Below are positions 1,177 through 37,399 of a stretch of DNA of 64,000 nt, in pieces; the first letter of the stretch is position 1, and every line of letters begins with the position of its first letter. Location of the stretch: assembly GCF_963506605.1 (NCBI RefSeq), contig NC_083285.1:30132001-30196000 (forward strand), written 5' to 3'. The notes under the pieces were generated by a model. The model was not told the origin of the DNA, made no database searches, and was given only the letters and a program-made list of their open reading frames with translations. The position numbers were made by a program, and so were the translations under genes. This DNA comes from Zootoca vivipara. Lineage: Eukaryota.

Positions 1177-16334
<15,158 letters not shown>

Positions 16335-18700: not shown

Positions 18701-20018
18701 GAGGTATATATGAGCCAACTTTTGCTATGATGATTGCCTTAAACTGCCTTAAACGGGCGGTCCTGGTTTGTGTGCTTTTATAAAGTTCCTGTACCAGCCA
18801 GCTTTCTCATAATGCAAGAAACTACTATTACACTCATGATCCCAAGCAAGCGTGGTGTTGTACGATGGAACCATATATATATACCGGTATATATATTTAC
18901 ACCCAGTCTGCAGGGCAATCCATGTCAGGTTTTTCTATCATGACAAAAAGTTTTTTTCCTCATAATGTATTTTATGCTGCTCTCAGTAATGGATACAATC
19001 TTGAAATTAAGTTTACTGTATGTAGAATACACAAGTGTGAATTCAAAGATAGCTTTATTTCTGTTAAATAAATCATGACAGTGTAATATGCCATGTTTTG
19101 TTGCTCATCTGAGGATGCATTTACCTGATTTTAAGACCTACTAAGGAAAAGATTATTATTATTACGTAAAACCACCTATGATTAATACTTCTTCAATCCT
19201 ACTGAAGCCCTACGTAAAAAAGATTTGTCATAGAATTCTGTCTTCATAGTATTTGCAGGGATCAAATAAGTAAGAAATATTTTTCCTCAAATTTCAAACT
19301 TAGGGAACATTTTCCATCTGTTTTTGTCCACTTATACCTAAATATGGATTATATGACACCCCATCAGGTAAGTTACAACATTTCACTATTGTTAGCTAGT
19401 CAGTTTTTCAGTACTTCTGATGCTCTATACAATTTTCAGGGAGGCTGGCAAAAATTATTAAGATTGAGGTAACAGAATCATAGAATTGTACAGTTGGAAG
19501 GGACCAATTCCCTGCAATGCAGGAATCTTTCACCCAACACGAGGCTCATGCTCTACCAACTAAGCTATCCCAGTACTGTACCTTTCCACAGTGAATTGTA
19601 TAAAGTTTCCAGAGTATTTCAATTGTTTCATAACAAAAGAAAAACAAAACAGGACTCACTGCTTGTCAGTACACAGTATTGGCTCAAAATCTTTTCTGTT
19701 GAGACATTCATGTGAAACATGTAGACTTTAAAAGTAAGAAATTGAAAAAAAATGTATACAACATAATCTGTTACCATTCCTTGACTTTAATAGTTGTAAA
19801 AAAAATGTTGCATCTTTACAGTGTAGTGGAATACTATACTGTATAGAGCTTTTAGTGTAATATATACAGAAATACCTTTATATAGAATAAATAGAAAAGT
19901 TTCATAAATATATTGTATCAATGCATATTGCAGCAAATGTGAACCTGTTCCATAATAATTTAAAAGTGCATTATAATATGTGCAATAATTCATCACAAGT
20001 TTTTAAATATGATTTATC

Positions 20019-23000
20019 TTATCTATCTAATTCATTTTTAATACGTCGTCTTAACCCAGTCTCTGGTTCTGCTGTTTCTTGATCAATTACTTCATCATCT
20101 TCCATCTTCTTTGGGTCTTCTGTTGGACTAAGCAAGAACTCATGATCATAGTGCTTATGCACCTCTTCATCACAGTGTTCCTCAATATCTTCAAACAGCT
20201 CTTTATGCCCACAGTTTTCATTATCACCCTCACCCATCTCTGCCTCAGGATGTGAACTGAATGACTGAATAAGATCTTCAAGCCGCTCTTGGCAAGTGTG
20301 GCTAACGTCTGAATTTCCCAAAAAAAAAAAAACGGGGAGGGGAGAAAATGAGAGATTTAAAATTATAATTAAGTCCACTGTGTGTATAATAATTAAAACA
20401 GAGCTGCTATCAGAGAATTGCAAATGAGCAACCAGCTTTATTAGATGGCAGTATACACTACATTAAAGTATACAGTTCTTTAACTTGTCTATTAAATCGT
20501 AAGTCATGTTTCTTTTGTTCTGTAGCATAAACAAATATTTAGATAATTCACAGGTCCATCTTCCTCTATAAAAATGAGTGAGGAACACCATAGAAGCTGC
20601 AGATCTGCATCCACTAATAATGTAATGAAAGGGTGGGCAACCTTTGGCCTGTCCTCCCCTGTTTTCCCCAAACCACACCTATCGGCCCTACACCTTATGT
20701 CAAAGCTTTCCAAACTTTTCATGTTGGTGACACACTTTTTAGACATGCATCATTTCACAACACAGTAATTCAGTTTTACTAGCAAACCAGAGGTTAAACT
20801 AACCTCTTTCCAGCACTGGGAGGAGCACAGGAAGTGTTCACACAACACCCCTACACATGTTGCGACACAGTTTGGAAAGTTCTGCCTTATGTCATATATG
20901 GTCAGGTAGCGGCACAGCTGGATCAGCTGCATGCCTAAGTATTCCATGGCAAACTCAATAGCACCACTGATTTATGCAGAAAGCAGGGTTGAAGTCACAG
21001 CCTATCAGCCAATGGGCAGTGAGTTCAAGCCTGCTAAATTAGCTGACTGTGCTCCCAGCCCTATGCTCAGCACTGTGGTCCCCAAGTGTCCAACAAACAG
21101 CTGAGTGTTAGACACTTGGAAACTACTGGACAAGGACTTGGGACAGGTTGGCAGGACAGCCTGGCTGTTGAAGCTGGACAACATAGGTGGGGACAAATAG
21201 CAATTTGGCCTGCTGGGCTAAAAAGTTTCCCCACCCCTGAGCTAATGGGAAGGTATGCTGTGCCCTCTAATTGCTTAGAAAGAACAATACTACACTATAC
21301 CACCAAGTCATACAAATATGTCAAGACCTGCAAAATCATATGCAAAACCTTCAGCCAGAGTCTCAAGCAGGGGTTATTACAGTGTGATTTTAACATATTA
21401 AACATGTAAGTACCTTCTGGTTTCATTGTTGATTTGTCCAATCCACTTTCTTTCATCAGCTTCCTAATGGACTCAAGCTGTACCATAATTTCATCTTTCT
21501 GTTCCGAAGCCAAGGCATTAATGCTGACATGAAATTAATTGAAAAGTCAGCAGGTAGTAATAGGGAACAGCTGTTAATATGCCACCAAAATACTTTTTCT
21601 AGCCCTCTTATAAGAAAACTCTTAATTATATATTCTTATGACAGCACTTAAAAATCAGACAGGTTGTGGAAACATCTTTCAACTATGCCAGTCACTAGGG
21701 ACCACCTTTCATCACATCAAGGAAGCAATAGGAATTCTCCTGCTGTCAGGATTCTGCAATCCAGATTAAAACCACAGACACAAACTGGCAAGTGCAAAGA
21801 AGCAAACAACATTGTATTGATAATACAGGCACAAAACCTAACTGCATCTGCCATGATGTGGCCAGAAGCTGATAAATGGATCTATGTAATATTGCTCAAG
21901 ATAAGGGACCCAGGTGGCTCTTTGGGTTAAACCACTGAGCCTAGGGCTTGCTGATCAGAAGGTCAGCGGTTTGAATCCCTGTGGCGGGGTGAGCTCCCGT
22001 TGCTCGGTCCCAGCTCCTGCCAACCTAGCAGTTCGAAAGCACATCAAAATGCAAGTAGATAAATAGGAAGGTAAACGGCGGGAAGGTAAACGGCGTTTCC
22101 GTGTGCTGCTCTGGTTCGCCAGAAGTGGCTTTGTCATGCTGGCCACATGACCTGGAAACTATACGCTGGCTCCCTCGGCCAATAATGCGAGATGAGCGCA
22201 CAACCCCAGAGTCGGTCACAACTGGACCAAATGGTCAGGGGTCCCTTTACCTTAATATTGCTCAAGACACATGCAAAAGAAGAGGTCCAAGATATACTCA
22301 AACTCTCATCTACTGTACTTATCTACCACTGTTAGTCTAATAAATGTTTAAATGGATCATTCAAGTGATACTGGTATAATTTATTTTTCAATCGTAAAAT
22401 ATTCAGATCTGTAAGTACTCCAAATGCATGAAAAGCCTGTATGAAGAAAACTTAACATTGGCACCTTGTAATTTGAATTACTCATCCAATCTTGTGTAGC
22501 CTGCCTTGCCAGAATGCTATTTAGGGTCTAGGAAGGGAGTGTAAAGATTGTTCCAGGATTATTATTTTTTATATTGTCAATTATTGTTAATGCAGAAAAT
22601 ATGGAGACAGCAAGGCAATTCACATGCTAATATTCTTGTGATGTTTAATCACATTTACCAATTCACAATTGTCTTGAGAGCTGAAATATTACTAAATCAA
22701 ATCTCCACCAAAATACTCACCAGCTTGAAAGTGGATCTAACTGATTCAATAAAGAATTTAACATTTTCTCTGTCTGTGCTAGATGTTGCTCCAACTCCAT
22801 AAGCTGGCGTTCTACAAGTGAGAACAAATACTTTTAAATCAGTGTTGCTAATAGGTATTTAAAAACCAATAATCTATATATCTACTTTTCAAGAGGAGCT
22901 ATGTAATTGGACTAAAGCATTCAAGGGCTGTAATCTTAAACCTACCGTATTTTTTAATAATAATAAAAAAACTAAGTTTCACTGAACTCAGTAGAATTTA

Positions 23001-26000
23001 CTTCAGGATAAACATGCCTGGGACTGCACAATAAATAATATAATGAAGAGAAAATTTGAAAAGGCCATTTTACCAGCAAAATTTGCTAGGAAAAAACAGC
23101 TTCACTTATTTGATTAAATGAGCAGCATTTGATCTGACAGACATTTTTTCCTAAAAACCAAATACACATTAAGTAATGCATTCCCCCACATTATCAACAC
23201 TCCCAAGAATTCTGTTCTCCAAAGTAGATTGCTCTAGTCTGTGCTAAGGAATAATGATACAAAGTAGCTTTGCCATAACTATCAGTAAGCAGTGAGTGGA
23301 ATGCATTTTCAGGAATGCACTCAACTCGAAAAACAGCAGCCCAAAAAGCAATTAAGATTATACAATTCTAGCAATTTGATTGCTGTTCACACAAACGGGA
23401 AGAGAAGGGCTGTAGAAAAAAATCTATCAAGCTTCTTAAGCTGAGGTGTGATTGCCTGAACTACTATGTCCAAACTATATGATAAAGATCTCTAGGCCTG
23501 AGATTTCTGAACAAACTTCTACCTGTTTCTTTTGTCTTAACTTCTGTAGTTTTTTCTTTCTTGGACAAGCTTTCCTCTTGAGATTTCATCTACAAAAAAG
23601 TAAACAAAATTTACCACAAAAGCTTTTAATATTGAAAATAACTAAACCTCAAGAAAATGTTTCACTCATTTAAATTAATGTGAAGACACGAGGCAGGTAA
23701 TAATACTTTATCTTGGAAATAAAGTGTAATCCAAAATATATTTCCCCATCTGCTTAATTTAGGTTCCAGCCTCTTTATTCTCACTGACTTCACTATGACA
23801 AAACCAGCATCAATCCAAAGTTTCCAGTTGAACTAAGCTGAAAACGAGTCCCTTCCTAGTCATGATGTTTTAACTTACAGTTCAGTTTTACTGATTTAGT
23901 CATACCGATTTTAGTATAATTTCTTATTCCAGATACAATCCTAAGATTAAAATTCCCACTGCTACGATCAAAATTCCCACTGTCTACGGCCATACTACCC
24001 TGAACACGCCCGATCTCGTCTGATCTCGGAAGCTAAGCAGGGTCAGGCCTGGTTAGTACTTGGATGGGAGAACCTAGTATGCCAATGAATATTTCAAGTG
24101 TTGCTGGAGAAATACACTTCTCTGCTTGGTTATCATTTCCACTTGCACTATCTGTAGACACCCTTTCCTGTGATGCAGGCAACCTTCTAAGCAAGGGGTT
24201 GCCACCATTACACAGACAGAGGAATGAGTTTAATGCTTATTCTAGCTTTGGAGCAGAGCACTTGGTAGAGTCGGAAAGGCCCAACCACCTCCAACTCCAG
24301 TTGGCTTTGCTGTTGACTTCTCTCCTTTTTGTAGGCAATAATTTTTCTAGGCATAGCTTGCGGCTATGTTTGTTTTACTGCCTGCTGGCGCATAAAGTAG
24401 GAAGCTACTTGAGGGGTCTCAGCTGAATATGGTGGTGAGGGGAGGATGTGGCATCCTAAATAGTAGTAGTAGTAGTAGTAGTAATTTATACCCTGCACAT
24501 CTGGCTGGGTTTCCCCAGCCATTCTGGGTGGCTTCCAACAAAAGATTAAAAATACATTAAAAGATCAGTCATTAAAAACTTCCCTAAACAGGGCTGCCTT
24601 CAGATGTCTTCTAAATGTCAGATAGTTGTTAATTTCTTTGACATCTGATGGGAGGACGTTCCATGGGGCGGACGCCACTACTGAGAAGGCCCTCTGCCTA
24701 GTTCCCTGTAACTTCACTTCTCGCAGTGAGGGAATCTTGTCTTGTTTCTGCTTTGCGTCAGAACAGAGACTGTTCTAAAAGCTATGTGCAAAGGCATCAT
24801 TATCATCACCTTTTCCTGCATTGTTCCAAAGTTGTTTGGGAGTGGGGCATGTTTGTGGCATTATCATTACGCACATGACTGAACAAATCCCAGTTCTGTA
24901 CAATTACGTGGATCATAAATTCTCTTGCTTACTAATAGTTACCTTTAAGAACTTGTATAAAGCAAATACACCCACACCAACAGCATACAAGGGCATGAGT
25001 GTTAAAGCAAAGTCTTTGCCATTCCCTCTAGTCCTCTCAGTCTTCATCTCCTTCTCCATTGCATTTCTCATTTGTTGGATGCTTTGGTATGTTTTGCTTT
25101 CAGAACCCTCTGAATTCATCTGTGACTGCAAGATTCTCTCAGATCCACCTGAAAAACAAATCATACATACATGTATGTAATACATACATACATGTGTGTA
25201 ATACATACATGTGTGGGGTTTACTCATGAGTGTAGGAAAGAATAGCAAAAGGGGAAAAGAAAGACAGACAGATACTTTGACCTGCAAAGCCTGTGGAGTA
25301 AGTGCGACCCCGCATTTACCCCTCAGGTCATTTTTATTACAATCAGAACACGTCACAGATTTCAAACGCTCCAATGACAATTCATTCAGCTTTCCCCAGC
25401 TCCTCCCAAAGGTTCCCAAATGGCAGGAAGGTGGGATACTTGCCTGAAAGCAACTCAGGATGAAACGTGAGTTTTAAGTATAGAGAAATGGAGACTTAAG
25501 CATCCTGTGGACTTTATATCGCAAATCTTACATTCTATAACCCAGGTGGAAAAAGTCTGACATAATGAATTATAAAATTCAGATCATCCTCTTCAACCAC
25601 ACACATGATCATAAATCTATTATTTCTTTCAATAAATCCCTGGGATGCTACTGCTACATATATGCACATACAAACAGGTGGAAATAAAAAACATGAGAAG
25701 TGCGCAAGTCTGTGAAGAAGAGAATTGTTCTGCAGCATGGAGAAATAAGCTTCACTGTGATAAGCAATTCTAGGTACAGCCTCAATGTATTAATGTGAGA
25801 TTGGCTGATGCTAATGAACATGGCAAGAGGCTTCTCCACTCCACTCTTAAAATTAGCCCCTCTTAAAAACTCTTATAAGTCTCCTCTTTGCAGATGGAGC
25901 TCTGCGGTCAGAGTCACATAAGACACAGGAATTGGCTGGGAATGTTTTAATTTCATTTTGTGCTATACTGTATGTTGACATTTTGTTTGATTTTATGTCC

Positions 26001-27136
26001 TGCTGGAGCTTGAAAGACTTCTATACTTTAGCCATCTTGTTATAATGGAAAAGCTGGAGTGGTACCTATTTATCTACTTGCACTCTGATGTGCTTTTGAA
26101 CTGCTACTGGTAGGTTGGCAGGAGCAGGGACCAAGCAACAGGAGCTCACCCCGTCGCAGGGATTCGAACCGCTGACCTTCTGATCGGCAAGCCCTAGGCT
26201 CTGTGGTTTAACCCACAGTGCCACCCGCGTCCCACACAAAAAAAGATAGCTTAAATCTGAACTAAGGAGACATACCTCATGCTGCTATAGAAATGTCTGA
26301 AATTTTAATTTCTAATTTTCTTGATGGATTTTAGGCCAAAAGGAAGTTAGCCAGGCTTTCCCCCTGAAAATAATGATCTTCCAAGACTTTATCAATATTA
26401 AGAACATAGAAACAAAAGTGGGTTTTTCTCATTCTGCCCATCTATACCCTAGAAGTTGTGTTTCCCAGAATGCATAAAAGGCAGAAAACACCAGTTTTTC
26501 ACCTTCCTTGGGACTAATTCAATACTACCACTCGANNNNNNNNNNNNNNNNNNNNNNNNNNNNNNNNNNNNNNNNNNNNNNNNNNNNNNNNNNNNNNNNN
26601 NNNNNNNNNNNNNNNNNNNNNNNNNNNNNNNNNNNNNNNNNNNNNNNNNNNNNNNNNNNNNNNNNNNNNNNNNNNNNNNNNNNNGAAGGTAACATCCAAA
26701 CGTTGGAGCTCTTCGTAGCACACTAACAACATAAGAGACGCCAATGACCGTTAATGCCCAGCATCACCTTTCTCCTCCAGTATCACCCATGCCTACCTTT
26801 ACAACAAAAAAATCTTTTAAAATGGGGGCGGGACTTAAGGAAGATGGCTTGCAAAAATGAACTTCTTGAAAGAAAAACACCGTTCGCTAACTAGTCTAAT
26901 GAAGCTCCCTCGTTTCCCTCTGTAACCGGACTGAAGGGATGGGACGGGGACGGGGACGGGGAAGGTGGCTGACACCACATACCGTGGCGCTGCTGATGGA
27001 GATCGTGGCGACCAGGGGAGGCCTTGGCCCCTCGCGGGGACCTGCCGCTTCCGCCGAACATCCTCGGCATGACCACGAAAACGCAGAGCACCAGCAAGAC
27101 GGAGATGAACACCTGCTGCACCGACGACAGCACCAT
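20019..27136 (-). CDS. RIC3/CCDC107-family membrane coiled-coil protein, complete, 6 exons, 305 aa
   Basis: Exons 26983-27136, 24943-25148, 23523-23589, 22721-22811, 21414-21523, 20019-20308 (918 nt, GT-AG, phases 1/0/1/2/1, no stops). N-terminal hydrophobic MVLSSVQQVFISVLLVLCVFVVMPRMF (RIC3-like), TM segment LMPLYAVGVGVFALYKFLK, coiled coil ELEQHLAQTEKMLNSLLNQLDPL (CCDC107-like), acidic tail ending GLRRRIKNELDR. Confidence 0.88.
21905..22252 (+). mobile_element. Sauria SINE, full length
   Basis: Homologous to 9302-9641; TSD TAATATTGCTCAAGA at 21887-21901 and 22253-22267. Confidence 0.9.
23982..24071 (+). pseudogene. 3'-truncated 5S rRNA copy (first about 90 nt)
   Basis: GTCTACGGCCATAC.ACCCTGAAC.CGCCCGATCTCGTCTGATCTCGGAAGCTAAGCAGGGTC.GGCCTGGTTAGTACTTGGATGGGAGA then diverges; lacks the last about 30 nt and the oligo-T terminator. 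Confidence 0.92.
24460..24735 (-). mobile_element. LINE 3'-end fragment (probably L2/CR1 clade) with trinucleotide tail
   Basis: TTAAAAACTTCCCTAAACAGGGCTGCCTT..AGATGTCTTCTAAA recurs at about 42240-42415 and, inverted, at 43205-43350 where it ends in (AAT)n. Confidence 0.6.
26054..26233 (-). mobile_element. Sauria SINE, 5' half
   Basis: Reverse complement of the SINE head and body. Confidence 0.85.
26536..26684. other. Assembly gap (149 N) in intron 1 of the RIC3-like gene
   Basis: Run of N. Confidence 0.99.
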
Positions 27137-27920
27137 CGCGATGGCAGCGGGGAAAGGAGCAGCAAGAACGGCAGCAGCGGAGGAAACAACCGAAAGGAGA
27201 AGCAGAGGGCGGCAAACGGCCCTCGGCCAGCCGGGAATCGTCGAGCGGTTCGTGTCGGCTTCGTCCACCGGAAAGACGCCTGGGGAAAGCGAGAGTCAGG
27301 AGCGAGGGAAGTTAGGCGAGGAAACCATAAACGTGGGAAGGGTGACTTCCGGCCCCGCGACGCCTCCGCTTTTCCTTTCTGGTGCCCCCTGGCGGGCTCC
27401 AGGCGACACGGAAAAGCGAAGTGCCTTTTGCCTCCATAGGAAATTAGAGAGCGATGTTAGCTAGTTCAACTCGGGGCCTAATCGGCTCTCTGAGGAAAAC
27501 TTAGCGGAGGGGAAATCTGCGCGGCTACTGCCGATTGCCTTTACTGTATCCCTCTTCCTGTGGGCGGGAACATCATCCCGAGGCGGAGACCGTTAGGGCA
27601 ACGGTCGCTGCGCGCTCTGTCCAGCCCGCGCGTTCCTGTCAGGGCGCAGCGGCCATGAGGCGGTTGTGGCCGTGGCTCGTCTTGGGGCTGGTCGTCCCCG
27701 AGGAGGAGCCCATCCAGCAGAAATTCCGAACCTACCCCCAGATTACTGACCAGACCTTTATCCGTCAGTACCTGGACGCCCACAACAACTTCCGCGCCAG
27801 GGTCCAGCCCACTGCTTCCAACATGCTGTACATGGTGTGTCCCCGGCGCGGGGTGGAAGGAGGAAAGGGAGTTGTGGGCGAAGCCGGGGTGTGGGTGTGC
27901 AGGCAGGGGGCAGTGCTGGA
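26880..27920. promoter_or_regulatory. CpG island / bidirectional promoter between the RIC3-like gene and GLIPR1-like copy A
   Basis: Divergent ATGs at 27136 (-) and 27655 (+), 518 bp apart, in one CpG-rich block; ETS/GABP-type ACTTCCGG at 27345-27352. Confidence 0.75.
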
Positions 27921-36859: not shown

Positions 36860-37040
36860 CAAATGCTCCCCACACCAAGAGCATGAGTATTAAAGCAAAG
36901 GATTCACCATTTCCTCGACTGCACTGAGTCTTCAAGTTCAACTCCTCCATTGCAATCCTTTTTTTGATGCTTTGGCAGGTTTTGCTGTCCGAACTCTCTG
37001 AATTAATATGCGACTGCAGCATTCTGTCATTCATAGCCAC
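36860..37040 (-). pseudogene. Degenerate duplicate of exon 2 of the RIC3/CCDC107-like gene
   Basis: After an acceptor (tgtttttcag) it translates RMLQSHINSESSDSKTCQSIKKRIAMEE..SRGNGESFALILMLL versus RILQSQMNSEGSESKTYQSIQQMRNAMEKE..TRGNGKDFALTLMPL at 24943-25148. The TM segment is eroded and the donor is lost next to a MITE. Confidence 0.85.
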
Positions 37041-37399
37041 CTGAAAAACACTTAAATATATATATATATTACTTAGGCTCAAGTAGCTTCTGAATGGAAT
37101 TGCTTGGGATTCTCCAGAGTAAGCCACTTCCCCCGTAGCATTTCGGCTAAACTACAGCTCAGACGAATTTAACACAACCACAGTAGCCAATTCGCCTATG
37201 TATGGACTGAAATGGCGGAAGAGACAGAGAGGAGAGATAGAAAGGGACCAGCAAATGTCCCCTTTAAAAAGAGAGGAGGGCGGGGAGAGGGGTCCATCCA
37301 GTGCATAAACCGGGAAAGAGAAGAATCGTTCCGGAGATGGAGGTACAGTCTCGAAACTGGCTGGTGCTGTTTAAAACAGCAAGAGGTTTCTGAGCTCCA

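Follow-up and report, generated by a model that had tools for sequence, protein, structure and literature searches.

Besides CCDC107 of other non-mammalian vertebrates, the closest described systems are RIC3 and mammalian CCDC107. In RIC3 the first hydrophobic segment is followed by a luminal loop, then by the second helix, the coiled coil and a tail that varies, and the minimum for alpha7 assembly is the helix plus the coil (PMC9318448; PMC3549563). Its topology is described as disputed (PMC10933150), it binds 5-HT3A directly (PMC12934730), and it works across species despite low identity (PMC9318448). In mouse, Ccdc107 adjoins Rmrp, Sit1, E130 and Car9 (PMC3198473), and the gene has introns (PMC5727442). 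Pfam and UniRef names already group CCDC107 and RIC3 proteins in one family. A literature search over the main text of open-access papers found no paper on a CCDC107-RIC3 link or on a relocation of CCDC107.

We analysed a 64,000-nucleotide stretch of Zootoca vivipara DNA (the window), which contains the lizard CCDC107 gene on the minus strand. Its six exons, joined by coordinate, give 918 nt that encode 305 aa and a stop codon, and all five introns are GT-AG with phases 1,0,1,2,1, which confirms the intact reading frame described by the sequence-only reading. The coding part of exon 1 (26983..27136) carries the start codon and the first hydrophobic segment (signal or anchor) and matches PF15361 weakly. 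Exon 2 (24943..25148) encodes the predicted luminal loop and the second hydrophobic helix (aa 98-116; 24955-25011) and scores 58.6 bits against PF15361. Exon 3 (23523..23589), whose junction with exon 4 is found in RNA reads, encodes a charged linker into the coiled coil, and exon 4 (22721..22811) encodes the first coiled-coil segment, which ends in a QLDPL motif common to mammalian CCDC107. A second helical segment is encoded by exon 5 (21414..21523), while the coding part of exon 6 (20019..20308) contains the acidic tail, which is predicted to be disordered, the GLRRR motif and the stop codon. The 3' UTR (19779..20018, minus strand like the exons) has an ATTAAA signal at 19786-19791, and a likely-RNA contig ends and read depth drops at 19779. 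A masked stretch inside intron 1 touches no exon.

To examine splicing, four sequencing runs were compared with the part of the gene from exon 3 to exon 6, which covers three of the five introns (3, 4 and 5). RNA reads are spliced at the exact predicted bases at all three tested junctions, and this RNA support had been named by the sequence-only reading as a check on the gene. Two raw RNA runs contain 23 and 12 splice reads for intron 3, 21 and 12 for intron 4, and 0 and 43 for intron 5; a third run, probably of RNA, has contigs in which each of these introns is likewise spliced out, whereas the three junctions are absent from a DNA run over the same part. In an 813-nt contig, exons 3-5 are preceded by 515 more letters, which would give room for exons 1 and 2. 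Lizard CCDC107 is a real, spliced and expressed gene.

The product is identical at 305 of 305 positions to RefSeq XP_034983768.2, named CCDC107, and differs from two other lacertid records at 8 and 10 of the 305 positions. A search with exon 2 matched 65 longer proteins, 46 of which are named CCDC107. A profile search returned 421 proteins; the best 120 listed come from fish, amphibians and sauropsids, and none of these rows names a mammal (7 rows carry no species). Among 127 proteins from a search of 50% representatives, 28 are named. The CCDC107 clade is represented there by proteins of shark, ray, lungfish, bichir and frog; the others comprise RIC3 proteins, two cyclostome-type proteins, one of which is named lamprey and the other presumably from hagfish, and platypus, marsupial and placental CCDC107 at E 4e-16 or weaker. 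When platypus CCDC107 is used as a query against a large protein set, only platypus and echidna match. The lizard gene has orthologues in sharks, in bony fish and lungfish, in amphibians, and among sauropsids in turtles, crocodilians and birds; the core identity of this non-mammalian gene is 51-95% from sharks to lizards, and a UniRef name ties the clade to zebrafish si:ch73-278m9.1. Because the product is identical to a RefSeq protein and orthologues extend from sharks to birds, the gene is neither unannotated nor reptile-specific, in contrast to the sequence-only reading, which had suggested an uncharacterised paralogue kept in reptiles. The lizard gene as such is ordinary, already known and annotated.

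The whole lizard protein matches the full Pfam RIC3 model (PF15361) with 128.2 bits, far above the curated cut-off of 28.9, so the assignment to the RIC3 family stands. Hydrophobic stretches span aa 1-31 and 97-116, and GLRRR lies close to the C-terminal end. For an orthologue with 84% identity, AlphaFold2 predicts (pTM 0.23) a long helix over aa 95-198 and a low-confidence tail; hydropathy and model together agree with a pair of hydrophobic segments, a coiled coil and a disordered tail. A homodimer fold predicted for residues 94-230 scores 0.01, which is evidence neither way, and a PDB search with the family profile gave 0 matches.

The genome search with PF15361 gave seven matches: three exons of the present gene, a further three around 69.39 Mb of C1, and one on C3 (E 5.6) that was rejected as a family locus, as it is a GCA/GAA microsatellite. 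The C1 gene, rebuilt from the genome, is RIC3 (401 aa, six exons, phases 1,0,1,2,1 as in CCDC107). The genome thus holds two RIC3-family loci, CCDC107 here and true RIC3 on C1, and neither the PF15361 search nor exon profiles made from mammals only revealed a third. On the proposed check for separate copies in the same genome, a separate RIC3 is present, and no separate CCDC107 was found in the searched regions that correspond to the mammalian site. Genome-wide searches with three mammalian CCDC107 proteins gave no match better than E 0.27, and with the opossum query lizard CCDC107 itself went undetected; because such searches are insensitive, a very divergent extra copy may exist elsewhere.

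Lizard CCDC107 is not the RIC3 of this genome, which is a distinct gene that falls in a distinct clade in the trees. The two share PF15361, two hydrophobic segments, the coiled coil, an acidic tail, a basic end, six exons in the same phases and a paralogous neighbourhood. In contrast to RIC3, CCDC107 has another second-helix motif (25% identity), lacks the glycine-rich luminal run and is ~100 aa shorter, and core identity between the two is 21-25%. Their surroundings correspond. NAP family genes are present at two loci and no more, C10 30.36 Mb, 0.2 Mb from CCDC107, and C1 72.57 Mb, 3.2 Mb from RIC3. Aromatic amino-acid hydroxylase genes lie at C10 28.9 Mb, 1.2 Mb from CCDC107, and at C1 71.8 and 73.4 Mb, 2.4 and 4.0 Mb from RIC3, with further matches at C10 49.3 Mb and, for one exon, on C8. 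In human, the regions 11p15 and 12q21 are sisters that arose by whole-genome duplication. Since CCDC107 and RIC3 sit in matching paralogous blocks, we read the site beside the CAP and NAP genes as ancestral, and CCDC107 is likely the whole-genome-duplication sister of RIC3 at that ancestral site.

Trees were built from 42 rows over 138 or 109 columns, with the cyclostome rows as root; the rows include neither mammalian RIC3 nor invertebrate RIC-3, and two truncated mammalian isoforms were set aside. In both trees the non-mammalian CCDC107 clade and mammalian CCDC107 are separated together from RIC3 (support 100/99). The seven mammalian sequences fall within the amniotes, on a long stem (96/96 and 99/95). 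The best trees place them within squamates; the mammalian rows fail the composition check, and this placement is taken as an artefact. Profile comparison agrees, as the mammalian profile matches the non-mammalian clade with E 1e-22 and 35% identity and RIC3 with E 6e-7 and 21% identity. An AU test rejects the grouping of mammals with RIC3 (p 0.011) and does not reject the species tree with sauropsid monophyly (p 0.066).

The sequence-only reading had suggested that the gene may be a separate third paralogue, which would mean that jawed vertebrates began with RIC3, a lizard-type gene and a separate CCDC107, and that mammals kept the separate CCDC107 and lost the lizard-type gene while all others did the reverse. 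This history is compatible with the AU test, which spares a tree with all 23 non-mammalian rows as a clade (p 0.146 and 0.197), with the different genomic address of mammalian CCDC107, and with a core identity of 35-44% to mammals versus 51-69% to sharks, fish and amphibians. Because the AU tests spare such a tree, the tree alone does not decide orthology. Orthology rests mostly on the complementary one-copy distribution, as one move stands against about five losses, separately in sharks, ray-finned fish, lungfish, amphibians and sauropsids. The nesting of mammals among amniotes in the best trees, the lack of a named mammal among the best 120 profile matches listed (7 without species) and the lack of any trace in the lizard ARHGEF39 block also speak against the third-paralogue history, and composition drift explains the low identity to mammals. 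With the protein grouping with mammalian CCDC107 and no third locus found, the third-paralogue claim largely falls, and we regard reciprocal loss as highly improbable. Its fuller form, in which a distinct third member, present in all jawed vertebrates but mammals, is an unrecognised ER chaperone that assists the assembly of ion channels, ligand-gated or otherwise, is about as hard to credit, if not slightly harder. The lizard gene is very probably the 1:1 orthologue of mammalian CCDC107.

The mosaic look that had suggested a new paralogue, with a RIC3-like N-terminus joined to a CCDC107-like helix and coil, is real in itself. Identity in the first hydrophobic segment is 59% to non-mammalian CCDC107, 39% to RIC3 and 20% to mammalian CCDC107; in the second helix it is 72% to non-mammalian and 39% to mammalian CCDC107 versus 25% to RIC3, and in the first coil 81% and 53% versus 26%. 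The look arises because mammalian CCDC107 changed fast. An N-terminus of the RIC3 type is ancient: RIC3 and non-mammalian CCDC107 retain it, and mammals have lost it. A recombinant of RIC3 and CCDC107 was also considered and rejected, as all 23 non-mammalian rows share this N-terminal type. Mammalian CCDC107 retains the second helix, the coiled coil with TE..L...L.QLDPL and the GLRRR end, and differs from the lizard protein in its shorter luminal loop and its place beside Rmrp, Sit1, E130 and Car9 in mouse. All four mammalian CCDC107 proteins that were scanned fall below the Pfam RIC3 cut-off. Mammalian CCDC107 proteins are enriched in residues with GC-rich codons; the GARP/FYMINK ratio is 2.8-11 in 9 mammalian rows versus 0.6-1.5 in 23 non-mammalian rows.

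Lizard CCDC107 lacks the mammalian neighbourhood of RMRP, ARHGEF39 and CA9. The lizard counterpart of the mammalian CCDC107 block is the end of C11, where Pfam matches mark FAM221, HIT, Rgp1, GH116, talin, tropomyosin, Aph-1 and carbonic anhydrase, then a weak RhoGEF and lysozyme, followed by telomeric repeats. We take exons of this block to belong to TESK1, CD72, CA9 and ARHGEF39, and mouse E130 to be Arhgef39. RMRP is single-copy in the lizard and lies on C9. With the mammal-only exon profiles, neither the 627 kb of C11 that span this block nor 120 kb around RMRP gave a match better than E 0.12, and no CCDC107 copy was found there; in these searches three exons of lizard CCDC107 rank first (E 3e-3, 3e-13 and 4e-3). 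Relative to the human order, as we assume it, the block runs in the opposite direction, and RMRP and CCDC107 fall at the junction. The GC content is 53% in the lizard block that matches the mammalian site versus 42% at lizard CCDC107.

CCDC107 probably moved on the mammalian stem, as intron-bearing DNA, to the ARHGEF39-CA9 block in a GC-rich region. The move was likely one of DNA because breakpoints of mammalian CCDC107 isoforms coincide with aligned introns 2, 3 and 4; a retrocopy origin was rejected on these breakpoints and on the introns reported for the mouse gene (PMC5727442). At the new site most of the conservation of the N-terminus and a large part of the luminal loop would have disappeared from the mammalian protein, and the relocation may have driven the drift in composition.

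On one side lizard CCDC107 faces a GLIPR1-like gene. A CpG-rich spacer of 518 nt (27137..27654, no strand assigned) separates the ATG of CCDC107 from the head-to-head ATG of that gene and is likely a shared promoter. Exon 1 of this first GLIPR1-like CAP gene (27655..27795, plus strand) is matched at 74-83% in DNA by exon 1 of each other copy, and the CAP domain of Pfam is recognised further along in those copies. The window contains at least four GLIPR1-like CAP genes, and one more together with KRR1 lies beyond it by Pfam, so the GLIPR1-like cluster that had been read beside the gene is present. A broken copy of CCDC107 exon 2 with its acceptor (36876..37075, minus strand; 75% DNA identity, indels) lies upstream of the second GLIPR1-like gene. 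It shows no donor-side match and no other CCDC107 exon is copied, and it was rejected as a second gene on these grounds; it is a relic of tandem duplication. Downstream, candidate exons at 1453..10041 on the minus strand belong to a neighbour that we take to be CAPS2; Pfam and PDB searches gave it no such name, and the position of the exons fits the human order.

A human gene table gives the order TPH2, KCNC2, CAPS2, GLIPR1L1, GLIPR1L2, GLIPR1, KRR1, with CCDC107 absent from that table (PMC4754774), as the sequence-only reading had described for the CAPS2-GLIPR1 site; a similar human gene listing is given in PMC5022012. In a frog gene model CCDC107 is fused to a CAP domain, and the CAP neighbour therefore likely predates amniotes. 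The evidence on synteny outside the lizard comes from these two papers and this one fused model.

By analogy with RIC3, CCDC107 is likely an ER membrane protein that is predicted to help multi-subunit membrane proteins assemble. The first hydrophobic segment would target the protein to the ER, the second helix would engage unassembled client subunits in the membrane, and the cytosolic coiled coil would bring them together; the acidic tail would not be needed, and retention in the ER may depend on the basic end motif. Our literature search, of the scope given above, found no functional data on any CCDC107. Human CCDC107 is listed with the channel TRPM7 in one high-throughput table (PMC12699267), knock-down of Ccdc107 left viability unaffected in the mouse fibroblasts studied (PMC3198473), and loss of CCDC107 left TLR4 signalling unaffected in the system reported (PMC12403076). 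A RIC3-like assembly role is a tentative proposal whose chances we put slightly below even.

Two other roles would fit an orthologue of CCDC107. If it were a genuine further chaperone of nicotinic or 5-HT3 receptors, it would overlap with RIC3, with which it shares the architecture and intron phases, a profile match over 194 columns, and P-x-Y-x-x-G plus a later Tyr in the second helix; RIC3 itself tolerates low identity across species (PMC9318448). Mouse Ccdc107 is expressed in fibroblasts (PMC3198473), which gives no pointer to a neuronal role. We consider this overlap unlikely and these receptors improbable clients. The clients probably differ from those of RIC3, because the second helix is 72% identical within the clade but 25% to RIC3. 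Both cyclostome proteins have the RIC3-type second helix, while the helix that became fixed in the CCDC107 clade is of another kind and has a Lys that never varies, which favours an ER assembly factor with other clients. The coiled coil is the best conserved part (81% among non-mammals, 53% to mammals) and the luminal part decayed in mammals, which would also suit a protein that acts in the ER as a coiled-coil anchor or tether, structural in function and not a chaperone; however, the second helix is constrained in non-mammals (72%, several invariant residues) beyond the need of a plain anchor, and we consider this role possible but doubtful.

Taken as a whole, the best explanation, which we hold with reasonable confidence, is a spliced, single CCDC107 orthologue that is likely the duplication sister of RIC3 at the ancestral site and a predicted ER assembly helper. 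The likely move of intron-bearing CCDC107, with RMRP, to a GC-rich rearrangement junction would be a case of relocation followed by fast change. As the likely duplication sister of RIC3, CCDC107 gains a testable function for an orphan human gene, and the conserved fish or reptile CCDC107 would be a better reagent for such a test than the eroded mammalian protein.

The tandem GLIPR1-like CAP genes beside CCDC107 number at least five, extend from window position 27655 to 64000 and into the stretches beyond (L054-L056), and are followed by KRR1. Most of the genes in the cluster have a CpG-rich first exon. A broken copy of CCDC107 exon 2, which includes the splice acceptor, lies on the minus strand within the cluster (window 36876-37075; 75% identity, with indels), approximately 520 nt upstream of the second GLIPR1-like gene. 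This copy shows that the tandem duplication of the GLIPR1-like genes carried along part of the neighbouring CCDC107. Intron 2 of CCDC107 (window 23590-24942) contains a 5S rRNA-like copy (66 bits), which is likely a dispersed pseudogene. Elsewhere on the same chromosome, two aromatic amino-acid hydroxylase genes are arranged in tandem (C10:49.337-49.376 Mb).

The block matching human 9p13 is located at C11:63.61-64.157 Mb (L037-L049 and L059-L108), runs to the telomere and includes Aph-1, lysozyme, galactosyltransferase and TAF1C-like genes. Relative to what we take to be the human gene order, the lizard block is inverted, and the inversion falls where RMRP and CCDC107 sit in mammals. The single-copy RNase MRP RNA gene (RMRP) is found on C9 (C9:51179201-51179476; L008:1501-1776), outside the CA9-ARHGEF39 block, and is adjoined by an exon with a dsRNA-binding motif. 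Compared with mammals, lizard RMRP resides at a different address, as does lizard CCDC107.

Several CCDC107-clade proteins are misnamed in public sets: a snake protein as TFIID subunit 4 (P0024), a frog fusion model as GLIPR1 (P0114) and a ray protein as RIC-3 (P0157). Both cyclostome-type proteins (P0224 and P0249) have a second helix of the RIC3 type, together with a first coil whose end resembles that of CCDC107, the mix that a form predating the duplication would be expected to show.
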